IMG/VR virus record: IMGVR_UViG_3300012953_000137
Coordinates: 1 to 30,244 of that record
Length of the DNA stretch: 30,244 nucleotides
From: a virus
Lineage: Duplodnaviria; Caudoviricetes
Reading direction: 5' to 3' (one strand)
This document shows, in pieces, positions 6,876 to 17,240 of this stretch. Numbering within the stretch: position 1 is the first letter of the stretch; every line of letters starts with the position of its first letter. Under the pieces are notes generated by a model. The model worked only from the letters and a program-made list of their open reading frames with translations, did no database searches and was not told the origin of the DNA. The translations under genes and the position numbers were made by a program.

Positions 6876-7245
6876 TACTACTCCCAAAGACACATCGCCC
6901 ACTAAACCAGTAGAACACACTGAAGAGAAACCACAAGAGCAAGAGGGTCTTGAACCCAGTAAAGCAATGCAAGTAATGAAACCTATTTTCTGTGCAGATA
7001 TAGAAACTGTACATGAGGGACTCGAAACAAATTCAGAAGAGAAACCTCATATGATTTGGAAAGATGCAGTGAATGGTTACACTACAATGCTCTGGTTGAA
7101 TAGAGTGAAAAGGACGGTGACTGTAATGGAATATGCTGCTCCAGAGATGGGATGTTTTACAGCTGTGGGTATAGATTTACAAATCAATGATCGTAGTCAA
7201 AAAACTAAGGGTATGCCAATTTTACATCAAATGGGACTTGACTAA
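6817..7245 (+). CDS. Putative lipoprotein
   Basis: Start moved to ATG 6817 (SD GGAG); MKHLVAIMAVFLLMG-C lipobox followed by a disordered linker. Confidence 0.75.
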   Translation: MKHLVAIMAVFLLMGCQTTDTTPKDTSPTKPVEHTEEKPQEQEGLEPSKAMQVMKPIFCADIETVHEGLETNSEEKPHMIWKDAVNGYTTMLWLNRVKRTVTVMEYAAPEMGCFTAVGIDLQINDRSQKTKGMPILHQMGLD

Positions 7246-7268
7246 TAAACTAATAGATGGTATAAATA
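7238..7268 (+). promoter_or_regulatory. Overlapping sigma70-like and T4 late promoter for the tmRNA gene
   Basis: TTGACT(7238)-17 nt-TATAAA(7261); the -10 box lies within a perfect T4 late consensus TATAAATA (7261-7268). Confidence 0.8.
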
Positions 7269-7272
7269 AGAT

Positions 7273-7336
7273 ACAATTTGATGACACGAATTGAAGACTG
7301 AACTGGACGAGGGTGCAATTCCCTCCGCCTCCACCA
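7273..7336 (+). ncRNA. ssrA: Permuted tmRNA, acceptor piece (tRNA-like 3' part)
   Basis: GGAC, T-arm GAGGG-TGCAATT-CCCTC (7309-7325), acceptor strand CGCCTCC, discriminator A and encoded CCA ending at 7336; 5' end approximate. Confidence 0.93.
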
Positions 7337-7349
7337 AAAGGAGATTAGG

Positions 7350-7454
7350 ATGTTAAAATTTATCAAAAACCTTTTCACTAGAGTTAGTGGAAATTGCTTT
7401 GATGCAAACTATCGAAGGAAGTGCAATGCAGAATACGATGACCTTTGCATGTAG
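7350..7454 (+). CDS. 34-aa Cys-containing peptide inside the tmRNA intervening segment
   Basis: AAGGAG SD directly after the CCA; MLKFIKNLFTRVSGNCFDANYRRKCNAEYDDLCM*. Confidence 0.6.
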   Translation: MLKFIKNLFTRVSGNCFDANYRRKCNAEYDDLCM

Positions 7455-7474
7455 TTTCCTATTAGGGGATTCAG

Positions 7475-7591
7475 ATGAAGAACCCCTTAGTACGAGAGGT
7501 AAGTAAGTGGATGTTAAGAGCCTATATTCTTTGGAGTATTTGTGCAGACATAACCTTACTTGCAGGCATTATATACCTAGTCTTTTTTTGA
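7475..7591 (+). CDS. 38-aa membrane peptide inside the tmRNA intervening segment
   Basis: SD-like AGGGGA; MKNPLVREVSKWMLRAYILWSICADITLLAGIIYLVFF*; a single base separates its stop from tmRNA G1. Confidence 0.6.
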   Translation: MKNPLVREVSKWMLRAYILWSICADITLLAGIIYLVFF

Positions 7592-7592
7592 T

Positions 7593-7762
7593 GGGGGCGA
7601 ATTAGGATCGACAGGCAGAGATAGATGAGTCGAGAATTGTCGGATGACTGCGTTATTGGTCAATTTAGTAAATGCAAACGATAATTTTGCATCTCAAGAT
7701 TTTGCACTAGCTGCTTAATCGGATAGGGTTTCGGGGGTTTCCTAGTAACAGAATAACCCCCA
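7593..7762 (+). ncRNA. ssrA: Permuted tmRNA, coding piece; tag ANDNFASQDFALAA
   Basis: Starts GGGGGCGAA..GGATCGAC; GGGGGCG pairs with CGCCTCC (7326-7332), giving the G3.U70 Ala determinant. Tag frame 7674-7718. 3' hairpin GGGGGTT..CCTAGTAACAGAAT..AACCCCC resembles alphaproteobacterial coding pieces. Confidence 0.93.
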
Positions 7763-7764
7763 CT

Positions 7765-7960
7765 TTATACTAACGCACTAAGGCGAGTATAATTTTAATC
7801 CCAAAGAAGTGAAGAGTAACAATCTGACTATCTGAGGGTAACATACAAAAGGAGAGTGGTGAAGTTAGATACCAATTGTAAATCATTTATTCCGCTGGTA
7901 TACGGAAACACAAAAGGGTGATGCCTTAATACATCCGTGGGGGGTCACGGTTAACCCCCC
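7765..7960 (+). ncRNA. Candidate structured RNA downstream of the tmRNA
   Basis: ~200 nt with no long ORF, several stems, ending in a GGGGGGT/ACCCCCC hairpin. Confidence 0.4.
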
Positions 7961-7981
7961 AAACTTAAATATGGAGAGATT

Positions 7982-12227: not shown

Positions 12228-12256
12228 AAAAGGGGAACTTCGGTTCCCCTTTTTTT
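12228..12256. terminator. Bidirectional intrinsic terminator
   Basis: AAAAGGGGAAC-TTCG-GTTCCCCTTTTTTT between convergent genes; cUUCGg tetraloop. Confidence 0.92.
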
Positions 12257-14159
12257 ACCAAGGCCCAGCGTATGCTGGTACGTTTCTAGTAGGCATTTGG
12301 TGTATCGGATGAGCAGAAGTTTCTGTTCTACTATTATCCGAAACATTATTAATAACTTGCGTACCACCATTTTGTTGTTGAGCAGCTGCATCCTTCTGCA
12401 TATTCTGTAACTCACCATTGAACGCTTTAATAGATTCAATAAATTCTGTTAGTCCTTTATCTGCTTCTTGCATGGATTTAAATGTGTCTTTTTGACTGAT
12501 AAAGAAATCTCTACCTCTAGACCTTGCAACACTTGACATACTCTCACCTTCAACTACCTTACCAGGCAAAAACTTGGATGCTAATGCTGCTTGTTCTTTA
12601 GTTAACCTCTGATTACCAAATGTTCTCTTCGCCCAATTTTGATAAGTATCGTTTACCATCGTTGGTTTACCATCTCTACCCAATATTGGGTTACCACGAT
12701 GATCTGTATATGCGACCTTTTTGTTTCTATCAAACATGTTACCTTCACTAAGACCAAACATCTCTCTGAACTTAGCACGTTCTGCCATCGTCTTTTGTAG
12801 TGATGCTTGTTCACCTTGTAGTTTAGGTAGCATATCTTTGTTTTTTTCCAATTCTCTCATGAGAATTGCAACATCAATACCAGCACTCGCCGCTGTTCCT
12901 GCTCCAGGCACTAGTGATGCACCACCAGATGCCAATTCTAAAAGCGCACCAGTTGTGTCACCTTCCATCAATTTTCCAACAGCAAACGCACCACCCGCTA
13001 ACAAACCAAAGCCAGGTATCTTCTTCAACAAACTCTTTCCTGCTGCTCGTGCCGCCATTGCTTTCATAAGTTTGTTAGTCGGTTTTAGAGTTGCTTTTAC
13101 AGCAGGCGACTTTCCTAAGTTCTTTGCCATCTGGAACTTTGGATTGACTTTTCCTTTATCAGTAAACTCTCTTACGATATTCCCATCCTTAGACATTATT
13201 GCTTTACCTAATTTTGGGTCTGCTTTAGTTGCGGCCTTGAGTGTTTTTGCTGTTGCCTTATTGAGACTAGGTTTCATGAAACCCAAAAAGGAACCGATAC
13301 CCTTAACTGCTGACCAAAGTAGTTTAAATCCTTTCCATATTCCTTTAATTGCAAACAGAATACCACCAGCAAGTAATGCCTTTGGTAACACAAGTGCTGC
13401 AACAATACCAACAATTGCGAGTTCTAAACCACTAAAGTTTTTCCACATATCTGCAAGGCCACCCAGAATACCTTTTTCTTTAAAGGATGAGAATGTGTTT
13501 GATATTCTCGCAAACAATCCTTGACCATCATTTTTTCCATCTTCAGTTGTACCACCCATAAAGTAAGTGTATATACCACCAAGTATGTTTTTAAATCCAG
13601 CAATTAACCCATCTAACTTTTTCATCATTTTTTTGAAATCAAAATTCTTTATTTTCTCTTTTATATTTTCCCACTCCTCACTCTCAAGGAAATTGTACAA
13701 CATCAACAAACCAGTTGCAATGAAAAATGCTTTGAGTCCAAACTTTGCTTTACTCGCAATACTACCTAAGAAACCCTTAGTGAACTTAGAAATGTTTGCA
13801 GCCATACCCTTCATTAAAGCACCACTTCTACTGCTCATTATCGCTTCTTTTCTTTTTGCAAAGGACTCTGCTGCATCAGTTCTCATTTGACCCATACGAT
13901 CTTTTGCATTTGCTAGGTTCATACCTTGCATAGACTTCTGTATTCTCTCAAGGAAAGATGATTGTTTCTCTTCAGTCTCTTTCACTTTCGGGTCTGGTTT
14001 TGAGGTGTTAAGAATAGTATCTTTAAGTTGTGTCTGACCTTCTTCGGTTGCGCCACCAGATGAAGCAACAGTCTGTTCAAGTTTTGCAATTGCATTACTT
14101 AATACATTAGTTGATTCTTTCTGTGCGTCTACTATTTGCTTAGTTGGTTCATCTGCCAT
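12255..14159 (-). CDS. Tail tape-measure / gp29-like baseplate hub protein
   Basis: 634 aa, helical, Gly/Ala/Lys-rich with hydrophobic segments and a KKIPG.GLLAGG block; lies downstream of gp26/gp51. Confidence 0.6.
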   Translation of the reverse strand: MADEPTKQIVDAQKESTNVLSNAIAKLEQTVASSGGATEEGQTQLKDTILNTSKPDPKVKETEEKQSSFLERIQKSMQGMNLANAKDRMGQMRTDAAESFAKRKEAIMSSRSGALMKGMAANISKFTKGFLGSIASKAKFGLKAFFIATGLLMLYNFLESEEWENIKEKIKNFDFKKMMKKLDGLIAGFKNILGGIYTYFMGGTTEDGKNDGQGLFARISNTFSSFKEKGILGGLADMWKNFSGLELAIVGIVAALVLPKALLAGGILFAIKGIWKGFKLLWSAVKGIGSFLGFMKPSLNKATAKTLKAATKADPKLGKAIMSKDGNIVREFTDKGKVNPKFQMAKNLGKSPAVKATLKPTNKLMKAMAARAAGKSLLKKIPGFGLLAGGAFAVGKLMEGDTTGALLELASGGASLVPGAGTAASAGIDVAILMRELEKNKDMLPKLQGEQASLQKTMAERAKFREMFGLSEGNMFDRNKKVAYTDHRGNPILGRDGKPTMVNDTYQNWAKRTFGNQRLTKEQAALASKFLPGKVVEGESMSSVARSRGRDFFISQKDTFKSMQEADKGLTEFIESIKAFNGELQNMQKDAAAQQQNGGTQVINNVSDNSRTETSAHPIHQMPTRNVPAYAGPW

Positions 14160-14167
14160 GTGTATTC

Positions 14168-14539
14168 CTATTTTTTAGGTGGGGTGCCTTTGTCCTTACT
14201 CTTAGCATATGCTTCCTTACCGTAGAAGGCAGCGACAATCGCTGCAACAGATACGAAATAGGTTGCTGCCATATCTCCCAATACCTTACCCGCTTGATCT
14301 AAATTAATAAGATATGCTAACACAACTAAAGAAGGATATAGTAACATCCCTGCTAATGCAAACCATGCCATATTACGTTGTGCATCTTCTTTCTTATCCT
14401 CATTTTCAATATCTGACTTCATATCTTGAAGTCGTAACATTCTCTCATCCAATTCAAGCTCCTCATCAGTAACAATACCATCGCCATCTATATCAAGGTG
14501 TGCATATTCACTATCTTTTTGTAGTTTCTTCTGTACCAT
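14168..14539 (-). CDS. Two-TM membrane protein with EF-hand-like loop
   Basis: DIDGDGIVTDEE loop, two hydrophobic segments, basic C-terminus; late-promoter-like CTAAATA at 14561-14567 (minus strand). Confidence 0.7.
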   Translation of the reverse strand: MVQKKLQKDSEYAHLDIDGDGIVTDEELELDERMLRLQDMKSDIENEDKKEDAQRNMAWFALAGMLLYPSLVVLAYLINLDQAGKVLGDMAATYFVSVAAIVAAFYGKEAYAKSKDKGTPPKK

Positions 14540-14555
14540 AGATACGATCCTTTTT

Positions 14556-14759
14556 TTATCTATTTAGTTTTCTTTGTTCCTCTTTTTGCTTCTCATTCTC
14601 TTCTTTTATGTGATTAACTAGCATTCCTACGTAAATTTCCCTCTCCCACGGTAACATATTCTCTAACTCTTCTAAGTTCCAATTATGATGTTGTTTCATC
14701 GCAAAGTTTGTCTCGTAATAGTTACTCAACGTATCATGTGAGAGGGCTATACGAAAAAA
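14556..14759 (-). CDS. gp51: Baseplate hub assembly protein gp51 domain (not in ORF track; first ATG at 14699)
   Basis: -1 frame of gp26 reads FFRIALSHDTLSNYYETNFAMKQHHNWNLEELENMLPWEREIYVGMLVNHIKEEN...; NYY..NF, E.ENM.PWER.IY motifs of gp51. Confidence 0.85.
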   Translation of the reverse strand, partial: FFRIALSHDTLSNYYETNFAMKQHHNWNLEELENMLPWEREIYVGMLVNHIKEENEKQKEEQRKLNR

Positions 14760-15448
14760 CTTTGAAAACCCTCCAATACAACCTTACCTGTTTTACCAGT
14801 GTTGGGGTTTTTAACTGATACTTCGTGTGTTAACTTAGGCATACTCTCAAAGAAATGTGTTATATCTTCTAAGTTAATAGTAGTCATTGATCCAATAAAC
14901 TCTTCCATTTCTTCTTTAGATATGTCAACGTCTTGGTGTACGGTTTCTCCCTCAACCACCTGATAAATGTTGTTTCCAATCATGTCAAACAGTGCTTGTG
15001 TTTCTGAATCAGACACAATAGAAACGTCTTTCAATGTGGGATATTTCATAACAAGTTTAACACCTTTTGCGATATCTATCTCATTAGTGTGTCCAGCATG
15101 CATTGTACATTCAATCTTTGATAAGTCAATTTTTTTCTGCACAACAGTCTCACCATCATCTGGACAAGTGATACCTAACTCAACGGTTTCTCCCACTGAT
15201 TTTGATCTCACCTTCAAGAAGATATATTCTACATCAAATGCAGGCATCCCCCATGAGTCGAATTTATTAAATGTGCAATCTTCTATACACTTTGCAATTG
15301 CATTTTGAATTTCTTTTTCATTGTCAGACTCTTGTGCGAGCATAAGATTCTTTTGTTCTGACATTAGGAAAGGTCTGTATTCTATTTCCTCTCCAGAAGA
15401 CGGTAAGTTTAATGTATACGTCACCGCATTTAGTTTAGGTAAAGCCAT
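14747..15448 (-). CDS. gp26: Baseplate hub subunit/chaperone gp26
   Basis: MALPKL...Y.L.LPS.G..I.YRPFL..E.K.L, FD.EYIFL..R.KSVGE, CPDD.ET, FF..MPKL and C-terminal LEG..SFF. Confidence 0.92.
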   Translation of the reverse strand: MALPKLNAVTYTLNLPSSGEEIEYRPFLMSEQKNLMLAQESDNEKEIQNAIAKCIEDCTFNKFDSWGMPAFDVEYIFLKVRSKSVGETVELGITCPDDGETVVQKKIDLSKIECTMHAGHTNEIDIAKGVKLVMKYPTLKDVSIVSDSETQALFDMIGNNIYQVVEGETVHQDVDISKEEMEEFIGSMTTINLEDITHFFESMPKLTHEVSVKNPNTGKTGKVVLEGFQSFFV

Positions 15449-15466
15449 AATATTTCATCCTTTATG

Positions 15467-16222
15467 TTATAAATTTAGTATTCTTGGAACATTCCTAGAT
15501 ATATTTCTAGAAACATGATCAACAGCGGTTTCTGCAAGATTACCAATGATGCTACCGCCCGGCATTCTTTCCTTATCTGCAACTGTCCAGTATCTAAACT
15601 GGAATGTTACAGGTAGGAGTATGATTTCGTTTTGACTTGCGTAAGTCAGATCATTACCTCCAATAGTTTTGGGATATGCTTCCCAACACTTCAATCCATA
15701 CCTTCTTTTATCGTTTTTGTCAAGTATGAAAACAGATATAGAACCAACGTAGTCATTGTAATAACTCATGTTCCATGTATCCTCATTGAACATTGCGTTT
15801 TGCCAGTTCTCGAAAAACTTTCTCTCTTCTAGTCCAGAACTTGCTTGGAACTGTAGGTTCAAGTCTTCTGCATAGTTGATACCACTTGCAACTCTACGGA
15901 CAGGCCCGTATATGTTTACATCATCTACGGTTTCTATATTTCTACCAGGCAGGGTTACTTGTGCTGCTCTCAACTGTATACTTCTTAGTCCACCACCTTT
16001 ACCACCTTGTGCAAGTCCCGATATTGCAGAGGGTAACAATGATGCAAATGCAGCAGTGAGTGAGTTGGGATTTCCCGATGAACCACCACCTGATTGTATA
16101 ATTTTCGGTAATCCAATTTCTATCTCATATCTATTGGGTTGTGCATAACCATCTTCTGATCGTAAAGCTCCCAATACATCATTCAATAGACCATAACCAA
16201 GTCCTTCAAAACTTGATATCAT
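15467..16222 (-). CDS. Tail-tube-fold baseplate protein (gp54-like tube initiator)
   Basis: A.PNRYE, V.LPGR, E.KFFE.WQ, YY.DY, AYP.TI and VTF.FRYW motifs; between gp2 and gp26. Confidence 0.7.
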   Translation of the reverse strand: MISSFEGLGYGLLNDVLGALRSEDGYAQPNRYEIEIGLPKIIQSGGGSSGNPNSLTAAFASLLPSAISGLAQGGKGGGLRSIQLRAAQVTLPGRNIETVDDVNIYGPVRRVASGINYAEDLNLQFQASSGLEERKFFENWQNAMFNEDTWNMSYYNDYVGSISVFILDKNDKRRYGLKCWEAYPKTIGGNDLTYASQNEIILLPVTFQFRYWTVADKERMPGGSIIGNLAETAVDHVSRNISRNVPRILNL

Positions 16223-16779
16223 TAGATCATACTCCTTGATTCTCTCCAGACTTCTTTATCAGATGCTTTCTGGAATCTTTGTACAGGTAGTAATGCAGCG
16301 ACTGTAAATTCGTCTGCATCTATCCTACGAAACTGTGATTTCGTATATCCTGCTAAGTACTTATGTAGTGTGGGTTTAATTAGATTGATATTTTTTAATT
16401 TCTGATAATCAACGTCTAGTCTCGTACTCTCATCAAACTTTGTATTGTTGGAGTAATCTACTAAACGGTCTAGTAATCTAATCCGTAGTGGAATAGGTAA
16501 ATAATGGAAGTTCACACCTAGAAACCCATCGTTGTATTTCTCCAGAGGTAACACTAAAGGGAATGTATCATAATATGGTAGCGTAGACTTGAACTTAGGT
16601 GAATAGAAGAACATATTGAGTCTACCATAGAAGGGACTACTACTTCTTTTACCATCCCTGATCAGGTCAAGAGCGCCTGGTTTCCCAAACTCTTTAATCT
16701 TGTCTCTATACCAATCAGTAGATCGTGGTCTACCACCAGCTGCATTAACTACAGATTGTACAAATTTACTTTGTGCCAT
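16222..16779 (-). CDS. gp2: DNA end protector protein gp2
   Basis: G...F.Y.PK.K.TLPYYD.FPLV, GFLG.NFHYLP and A..LP..RF.K.....VW..S motifs. Confidence 0.9.
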   Translation of the reverse strand: MAQSKFVQSVVNAAGGRPRSTDWYRDKIKEFGKPGALDLIRDGKRSSSPFYGRLNMFFYSPKFKSTLPYYDTFPLVLPLEKYNDGFLGVNFHYLPIPLRIRLLDRLVDYSNNTKFDESTRLDVDYQKLKNINLIKPTLHKYLAGYTKSQFRRIDADEFTVAALLPVQRFQKASDKEVWRESRSMI

Positions 16780-16796
16780 AAAAAATCTCCATAATA

Positions 16797-17240
16797 CTAT
16801 TTATACTTAATGTTCAGATGATCCTCTGTTAATATCTTAAATTCCATGTCGTTGTTCTTGCACCAAGCGGTAGCATATTTCCACTTTGATGAGTTAACAC
16901 CCCATGCCTTAACTTCGTTCATCCATCGTTTTGTCTTACGTTTAGGTTCTTTTGGTGGAGAGCATTGCACTTTAGGTTTGACCTCAATGATATACCTTTT
17001 CAGTTTACCATCGTGCTGACGTACTTTTATATAAAAATCTGGGAAATATCTGTGCATCCGACCATCCCAAGGGGATAAATAGGGTATGATGATCTCTTCA
17101 CTGCCCCATTCAATAATGTTATCACTGGTATCACAATATACCATGAACTTCCGTTCCCATAGAGAACGGTAGATTATGTTATGATGATCCCCTTTATATT
17201 TTTTGGGATGAATAGGATTATATCGACCTTTGTACGCCAT
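16797..17240 (-). CDS. gp4: Head completion nuclease gp4
   Basis: Y.G...P..P.KYKGD, IYRSLWE..FM..CD, W.SEE, HRYFPDF, IEVKP and KW..A...C....F.ILTE motifs. Confidence 0.93.
   Translation of the reverse strand: MAYKGRYNPIHPKKYKGDHHNIIYRSLWERKFMVYCDTSDNIIEWGSEEIIIPYLSPWDGRMHRYFPDFYIKVRQHDGKLKRYIIEVKPKVQCSPPKEPKRKTKRWMNEVKAWGVNSSKWKYATAWCKNNDMEFKILTEDHLNIKYK
16798..16805 (-). promoter_or_regulatory. T4 late promoter for gp2
   Basis: TATAAATA on the minus strand in the last codons of gp4. Confidence 0.8.

Follow-up and report, generated by a model that had tools for sequence, protein, structure and literature searches.

The closest described relatives of the locus reported here are the permuted tmRNA genes of the Alphaproteobacteria (RF04321, RF01849; PMC11915505). 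They share with our locus the order acceptor piece, intervening segment (IVS), coding piece, as well as the encoded CCA, the G1 motif, the alpha-type tag frame and a stem-closed IVS that often ends in TGAT. The bacterial IVSs, however, are short hairpins, whereas phage IVSs have a median length of 81 nt and often bear genes. The available part of PMC11915505 describes a tRNA-Ala inside one IVS and a repetitive element inside another, and does not mention small protein genes. Two-piece ssrA genes have also been published for the marine myophages Melnitz and Mosig (PMC9004378), which show the same synteny as our locus: a PD-(D/E)XK nuclease, ssrA, the gp33 coactivator, and then a helicase loader or ThyX. 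The IVS goes undiscussed in the available part of that article, and the available part of PMC4131195 lists phage ssrA genes and leaves their IVSs unmentioned. A protein ORF in a stem-closed spacer cut from a stable-RNA precursor is known from 23S rRNA, where the accessible part of PMC4990558 describes an IVS with an S23p ORF, excision by RNase III, one ORF family, reductive evolution and a product that is probably not translated in vivo. The IVSs studied here differ in holding many interchangeable families of selected small genes, in belonging to phages and in having tRNA-type processing boundaries. Small genes also lie between the tRNA genes of T4-type phage tRNA clusters. There, too, an ORF in a processed precursor is flanked by a CCA end on one side and an RNase P site on the other, and two relatives of the first peptide described below are so placed, between processed tRNA ends (L204 after tRNA-Glu, L202 before tRNA-Tyr). 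In the permuted tmRNA, by contrast, both boundaries belong to one RNA gene, and because the spacer ends must pair by the acceptor stem, the SD is placed in a stem.

The DNA analyzed here (the window) is a linear virus record of 30,244 nt in which T4-like genes surround ssrA; PhoH, lysozyme, exonuclease, the gp33 late coactivator, helicase loader and ThyX lie near it. The window derives from a marine T4-like phage whose ssrA is of the permuted alpha type: Rfam covariance models match permuted tmRNA (RF04321) at 7273-7718 with 115 bits and alpha_tmRNA (RF01849) at 7234-7764 with 98 bits, and the match puts the acceptor piece upstream of the coding piece. ARAGORN called no tmRNA in the window. 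The tag frame is intact and ends in Ala-Ala (ANDNFASQDFALAA at 7674-7718), and the best cultured match to the tmRNA region is Melnitz. Judged from the tmRNA type, the host is likely an alphaproteobacterium; this type is, however, also present in Melnitz, a phage of another class according to the available part of PMC9004378. Elsewhere in the window, a block of minus-strand ORFs (12255-16779 and 16797-17240) breaks an otherwise plus-strand record. A conserved element (GGGTGATGCC..AATACATCCG) lies upstream of gp33, at 7916-7965, and an H-type pseudoknot that shows compensatory changes comes after it. This element, present in 36 distinct versions in the loci compared, Melnitz included, has no Rfam match at gathering score and is possibly a leader or a processed RNA. 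The features of the ssrA locus are as follows.

7238..7268, plus strand: promoter region; an exact T4 late-type box, TATAAATA, at 7261-7268 overlaps a sigma70-like TTGACT-17-TATAAA
7273..7336, plus strand: tmRNA acceptor piece (T-arm, 3' acceptor strand, encoded CCA at 7334-7336), from the RF04321/RF01849 alignment
7337..7349, plus strand: closing stem, 5' arm, holding the ORF1 SD (AAGGAG, 7338-7343), from the MFE and centroid folds
7350..7454, plus strand: ORF1, 34 aa, three Cys, with an amphipathic N-terminus, a conserved Arg and a C-terminal Y[DE]D[LV]CM
7460..7492, plus strand: hairpin over the ORF2 SD (AGGGGA, 7464-7469) with the AUG in its loop, from the centroid fold
7475..7591, plus strand: ORF2, 38 aa, predicted single-pass membrane peptide with a WSICAD motif, from dN/dS and relatives
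7576..7588, plus strand: closing stem, 3' arm, formed by the last codons of ORF2, from the fold
7593..7718, plus strand: coding piece of the tmRNA, starting at G1 (inferred RNase P site) and ending with the tag frame, from the Rfam alignment
7719..7764, plus strand: 3' hairpin region, part of the alpha_tmRNA model, from Rfam and the fold

The sigma70-like site was spotted by eye and was not listed by a consensus scan; TATAAATA is what we take to be the T4 late promoter box, identical to the T4 late consensus. With the CCA at 7334-7336 and G1 at 7593, the IVS spans 7337-7592, or 256 nt. The SD of ORF1 starts one base after the CCA, and one base separates the TGA of ORF2 (7589-7591) from G1. The sequence-only reading had proposed just this IVS with these two ORFs, an SD near the CCA and a stop next to G1, and every coordinate proved accurate. 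Two non-overlapping, SD-led ORFs of at least 30 aa arose in 0 of 5000 dinucleotide shuffles of the window IVS. The layout is no assembly accident, since it recurs in other contigs (L164, identical to L456; L158, cut upstream; L462), with divergent ORF1 proteins, and since contigs of run X10, possibly the window's own sample, match 7319-7502 and 7473-7601 with zero differences. The one-base gap before G1, which the earlier reading had singled out, is real and reflects a widespread feature: a TGAT end closes 73 of 108 distinct phage IVSs, 36 of the 58 short ones (<100 nt) and 36 of 120 bacterial IVSs, and the ORF2 stop reuses this common end.

Selection on the second ORF was estimated by counting methods. 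Among 27 distinct 38-aa copies that reside in IVSs, dN/dS is 0.146 (bootstrap 0.08-0.28), while the other forward frames of the same set give 1.06 and 2.01, all with stops. A 44-aa form gives 0.135 (12 copies), and over all ORF2 estimates the other forward frames range from 0.9 to 2.6, again with stops; seven further ORF2-bearing IVSs were left out because their coding part was a duplicate or their length differed. As protein similarity had been the route to most copies, we repeated the estimate on eight copies selected by tmRNA motif, IVS length and first bases only, and obtained 0.18 (0.10-0.31). The 39 distinct 38- and 44-aa IVS copies, eight of them picked by DNA features alone, contain no stop codon. 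Purifying selection is confined to the annotated frame, and on this evidence ORF2 is a real gene under purifying selection. Its family was confirmed in 263 of 412 candidate stretches from viral contigs; among the best 80 of these 263, 74 lie inside an ssrA IVS (68 assigned by script and 6 by eye, the latter with variant motifs or at contig ends) and 6 outside ssrA (L136, L137, L139, L147, L153, L167), a ratio that favors the IVS because the query came from IVS copies. The Trp-Ser-x-x-Ala-Asp motif is conserved. A search of the protein database gave 136 relatives that lack both a Pfam domain and an informative name; no cultured phage in INPHARED encodes ORF2, and the family was not found in 401 sampled bacterial genomes (class of G001) or in 5 further ones, in a search whose positive control on the phage's own record succeeded, a sampling result that does not amount to absence. 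In two database proteins (P0031, P0052), a shift at the T-run before the stop joins ORF2 in frame to the peptide of the tmRNA tag; these fusions are probably homopolymer errors, and possibly slippage variants.

ORF1 has a different distribution. A DNA pattern for its C-terminal motif has an estimated 500 matches; the 120 that were listed include three inside an IVS (two distinct sequences), three that neighbor tRNA genes and two that look like chance. The other listed matches are free-standing genes of 25-66 aa with the same build, in unrelated phage contexts. Two more relatives lie in tRNA clusters. Over the last 18 codons of four IVS copies, pS is 0.80 (saturated) against a pN of 0.18, a contrast that is partly circular because this stretch contains the extraction motif. 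With 277 database relatives and no family name, and judged by these homologues and this selection, ORF1 is a real gene of a widespread, mostly free-standing family of phage peptides. The search of INPHARED gave only matches at E 7-8 to the first 16 residues, which we took as chance, and the family was not found in the same 401 bacterial genomes, under the same positive control. The peptide has no hydrophobic stretch; its N-terminal helix is amphipathic, and its acidic-hydrophobic C-terminus is conserved. The three cysteines noted by the sequence-only reading are present, but only the final one is invariant in the family, and we rejected a three-cysteine metal or disulfide motif on that ground. 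A role in lysis was likewise rejected: some free-standing copies precede lysozyme or holin genes, yet the context is not fixed, and in the 28 of 99 neighborhoods scanned the other neighbors include Hsp20, RegA, gp33, gp25, ribonucleotide reductase, terminase and DNA polymerase genes. Peptides ending in Y[DE]D[LV]CM recur in unrelated marine phage types (L205-L324), often just 5' of lysozyme, holin or Hsp20, and have no family entry.

Neither peptide is named by PHROGs, Pfam, NCBIfam or PDB sequences, and the ESM Atlas returned hypothetical clusters only, with AzuC-named clusters for ORF1 at 0.79 as a mere lead. Candidates considered and set aside are a type I toxin, a holin or another named small membrane protein (no curated-family or solved-structure match for either peptide); the S23p family (no Pfam or NCBIfam match for either ORF, and a tmRNA as carrier); and a group I intron with a homing endonuclease (no Rfam intron match, an insert after the CCA rather than in the T-loop, and ORFs of only 34 and 38 aa). 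ORF2 has the hydrophobic stretch expected from its earlier description as a transmembrane peptide (19 residues, Kyte-Doolittle mean 2.13). Most ORF1 relatives, and 6 of the best 80 ORF2 relatives, are independent of ssrA. Both peptides are likely to be accessory factors that are directed at the host, act at the inner membrane and have no link to trans-translation; this membrane role is read from hydropathy alone and is the weakest step of our argument.

To see how common such cargo is, we compared ssrA loci collected with the G1 motif: 120 viral loci, of about 850 estimated, of which 117 could be delimited, and 120 bacterial loci, of which 119 could be delimited. Fifty of the 117 phage IVSs are at least 100 nt long, and ORFs fill 30 of these 50 (3.1 expected); of the 20 other long ones, 10 are alleles with a leader plus ORF2, whose first ORF fails the length rule. 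Bacterial IVSs have a median of 34 nt, 2 of 119 reach 100 nt, and none of the 119 contains an SD-led ORF of 20 aa, which, for bacteria, bears out the earlier statement that this segment is short and non-coding. The window, with 256 nt and two ORFs, falls outside this bacterial type. The phage IVSs include many unrelated ORF families and many hairpin-only inserts, and 58 of 108 distinct ones are shorter than 100 nt, many of them bare hairpins. Some non-coding hairpin inserts of 60-160 nt are themselves recurrent (L006/L067/L081, L008/L011/L039, L021/L079, L061/L062, L057/L106, L060/L192, L080/L084). No known RNA family is called by Rfam in the window IVS, nor in 20 further loci, most of them selected because their IVS is of the hairpin type. 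One IVS of 111 nt (L102) looks by eye like a tRNA remnant, with D-loop and T-loop motifs; ARAGORN and Rfam call nothing in it.

The contents of the IVS are exchanged between phages. Among 163 distinct viral genes, 17 pairs of loci have tmRNA cores 93-100% identical and IVSs of different classes, although metagenomic chimeras could yield some such pairs. The three complete two-gene IVSs do not group as one clade on the core tree, requiring three changes in all bootstrap trees (201 columns, with many forks left open). A contig of run X13 that matches the window exactly over 7255-7348 enters ORF2 via a 17-base leader that replaces ORF1, at near flank depth, while ORF1 is essentially uncovered. 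In run X10, the allele with ORF1 has a depth of 3.7 against 10-13 for the flanks, and contigs that match the window flanks carry the one-gene allele. Together, the one-gene allele in X13 and the low depth in X10 indicate that ORF1 is optional even among near-identical phages. A shorter allele is also seen in both runs, as a class of contigs over window 7348-7505 with 20 other bases in place of ORF1 and the first ten ORF2 codons. Two loci (L190, L192) have a hairpin insert and ORF2 stacked in one IVS, showing that cassettes can accumulate. The IVS is thus a swappable slot. Of the two explanations offered by the sequence-only reading, this is the one it gave as an alternative, a tolerant landing site for cargo, and both the ORF-filled fraction and the IVS exchange strongly support it. 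The comparison of spacer length, ORF content and dN/dS that it had proposed as a check found recurrent ORFs and purifying selection on them.

A reading of the ORFs as inert passengers, in which phage genes that once had a function now merely reside in a tolerant spacer whose stem keeps them silent, would agree with the lack of ORF1 in the commonest allele of a near-identical population, with its lack in any RNA contig and with the fate reported for the 23S rRNA ORF in the available part of PMC4990558. We consider it highly improbable, because dN/dS is far below 1 among copies that reside in the IVS, the 39 distinct ORF2 copies are free of stops, and ATG and GTG interchange at a fixed place behind an SD.

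The IVS is also structured in a way that bears on its expression. The window IVS folds better than its shuffles (z = -4.2), and 7337-7349 pairs with 7576-7588 in a stem that adjoins the acceptor stem. Such a closing stem is found in 46 of the 50 phage IVSs of at least 100 nt, against 9.6 expected. Across 76 IVSs, one pairing register is formed in 93% of cells, compared with 37-62% for the other eight, by many pair types. Pairs 3-10 of the stem are formed in 45 of 45 ORF2-bearing IVSs, again by several pair types. The hairpin over the ORF2 start is similar across ORF2-bearing IVSs, its core pairs forming in 38-44 of 46, with register shifts between alleles. We used equilibrium folding of truncated sequences as a measure of start-site accessibility. 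The predicted probability that the ORF1 SD is unpaired is 0.01 in the folded excised IVS and 0.35-0.42 in the nascent precursor; opening it costs 4.5-5.2 kcal/mol in nascent RNA, and this cost rises to 12.2 in the excised IVS and to 16.9 in the folded precursor. The ORF1 AUG, too, is predicted to be paired in nascent RNA (0.14-0.28), which speaks against the reading that we prefer below.

A second line of evidence comes from ORFs that run past the processing site. In 10 of the 30 ORF-filled phage IVSs (L012, L014, L064, L068, L069, L087, L003, L037, L066, L082), the ORF stops beyond G1, at a stop codon 13 nt past it; a script had counted 11, from which we dropped L024, whose conserved ORF ends inside the IVS. 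One such family, with six copies, has a pS of 0.77 against a pN of 0.24. Melnitz itself (EXVC044M, MZ577097) has an SD-led IVS ORF that crosses G1 (L472:1300-1464) and is without annotation in its record. This ORF shares a KYLS/G motif with L015, L045, L071 and L110 and belongs to a family other than those of the window ORFs; the IVS of Mosig is a short hairpin.

These observations argue against a spacer that serves as messenger after its release, the main proposal of the sequence-only reading, according to which the excised spacer acts as a bicistronic mRNA. Such a stable, stem-protected RNA would be released by processing and translated afterwards. Consistent with it, both window ORFs have their SDs and stops wholly inside the IVS, the closing stem could shield the RNA from exonucleases, the first ORF ends inside in 19 of the 30 ORF-filled IVSs (20 with L024 reassigned), and the hairpin-only inserts of 60-110 nt suggest released spacers with a life of their own. 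In the excised form, however, the ORF1 SD is predicted to be sealed and the ORF2 SD lies in a hairpin; the ORFs that terminate only past G1 would be left without a stop codon in an excised spacer; and contigs from RNA libraries over ORF2, which may be DNA, run into the coding piece, one of them bridging G1 with 84 and 67 letters. We therefore regard translation from the excised spacer as unlikely. SD access in the different RNA states and the G1-crossing ORFs point instead to the precursor as messenger. Run contigs also cover ORF2 in a relative's one-gene allele. In the contigs of six RNA runs (X1-X4, X6, X7), none covers ORF1 or the flanking protein genes in their window form, so that these runs are uninformative on expression; eight of nine small-share runs are recorded as RNA.

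How ORF2 would be opened may differ between alleles. In the two-gene allele, ORF1 takes the place of the leader found in one-gene alleles, and the ORF1 stop lies 20 nt from the ORF2 start in 4 of 4 contigs, with three distinct spacers. When 7455-7463 is masked to represent a terminating ribosome, the ORF2 SD is still predicted to be mostly paired (unpaired probability 0.21-0.22; 9.2 kcal/mol to open), and its opening cost drops to 2.6 kcal/mol only when the mask reaches 7466. These values count against a relay in this allele, for which coupling from the ORF1 stop to ORF2 is no more than plausible. In one-gene ORF2 IVSs, a start codon lies at position 14-15 in 41 of 41 (ATG in 19, GTG in 22), followed by a frame that is open over the ORF2 start; the other frames contain stops in 39 of 41 and 10 of 41. 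The amino acids of this leader are near neutral (dN/dS 0.78), and a start and frame that are kept while the amino acids drift are the signature of a leader that delivers ribosomes.

Our preferred reading is that the spacer is a stem-closed, swappable slot with two selected small-protein genes, whose peptides are likely made from the uncut precursor and not from the excised spacer; we assign it a probability of roughly 0.6. The slot, its exchange, the purifying selection on both ORFs and the conserved closing stem are observed, and the sequence of transcription and translation is our reconstruction, as follows. Transcription would begin at the ssrA promoter, and ribosomes would load on the ORF1 SD before the 3' arm of the stem exists, in a brief co-transcriptional window. 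A ribosome at the ORF1 stop would loosen the ORF2 start hairpin, and ORF2 would then be read; in the commoner one-gene allele, a ribosome crossing the out-of-frame leader would do the same. After the 3' arm has been transcribed and ribosomes have cleared it, the stem would close and seal the ORF1 SD. RNase P and 3' trimming would then release a spacer RNA that is hairpin-closed and silent, leaving the two-piece tmRNA to mature. In this way a strong, late-capable promoter would supply the phage with two membrane-associated accessory peptides in a small amount that limits itself, and the tmRNA would bear no cost. Of 117 phage ssrA genes, 82 have the TATAAATA box upstream, compared with 0 of 118 bacterial ones, and with such a box before phage ssrA the IVS cargo would be expressible late.

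Translation of the spacer could instead serve chiefly to regulate tmRNA maturation, with ribosomes blocking both acceptor-stem formation and RNase P cleavage and so setting the amount of tmRNA, the peptides being secondary. With the ORF1 SD one base past the CCA and the ORF2 stop one base before G1, both ribosome footprints would cover the processing sites, and the retention of leader start and frame without amino-acid conservation counts in the same direction; a coupling of spacer translation to tmRNA maturation is geometrically plausible from the positions of these sites. The strong amino-acid selection and the free-standing copies indicate, however, that the peptides matter in themselves, and the many phage IVSs under 100 nt that are bare hairpins imply that related tmRNAs mature without any ORF. 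Regulation as the main purpose is thus a rather remote explanation, though not so improbable as inert passengers.

In the G1-crossing alleles, cleavage by RNase P would leave a non-stop mRNA. A comparable situation is the control of arfA by trans-translation of a non-stop mRNA, as described in the available part of PMC10107115: in the sister alleles, too, the message would lose its stop codon on cleavage and become open to tagging by tmRNA. The differences are that the window ORFs stop inside the IVS and are thus exempt, that the putative cutter is RNase P and that the mRNA is the tmRNA precursor itself. A bolder and doubtful, if still conceivable, extension is that the tmRNA precursor is both a dual-use transcript and a gene-shuttling vector, in which the stem would act as a timer allowing one burst of small protein per transcript, ribosome traffic would gate maturation by RNase P, and, in G1-crossing alleles, the cut would create a non-stop mRNA tagged by the phage's own tmRNA, closing a feedback loop.

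In the literature searched (mostly open-access), we found no description of a small protein encoded in an IVS. A selected two-gene IVS thus appears to be undescribed in that literature, while its kind, cargo in the processed spacer of a stable RNA, is already known. What is added here is the two-gene allele, the logic of an SD placed in a stem, the G1-crossing ORFs and the unannotated IVS ORF of Melnitz.

In these phages, an abundant marine group, a segment that has been regarded as a discarded by-product of processing serves as a slot for genes. At least 30 of the 117 sampled phage ssrA genes hide a small gene, or about 40 if the alleles with a leader plus ORF2 are included, and annotation misses these genes because they lie inside a called tmRNA, as in Melnitz. 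The slot is a source of selected, unnamed small phage proteins, and it offers a natural case in which tRNA-type processing and translation compete for one RNA. The IVS genes also give an experimental handle on why phages carry ssrA, and Melnitz, with its own IVS ORF, is a ready test system.
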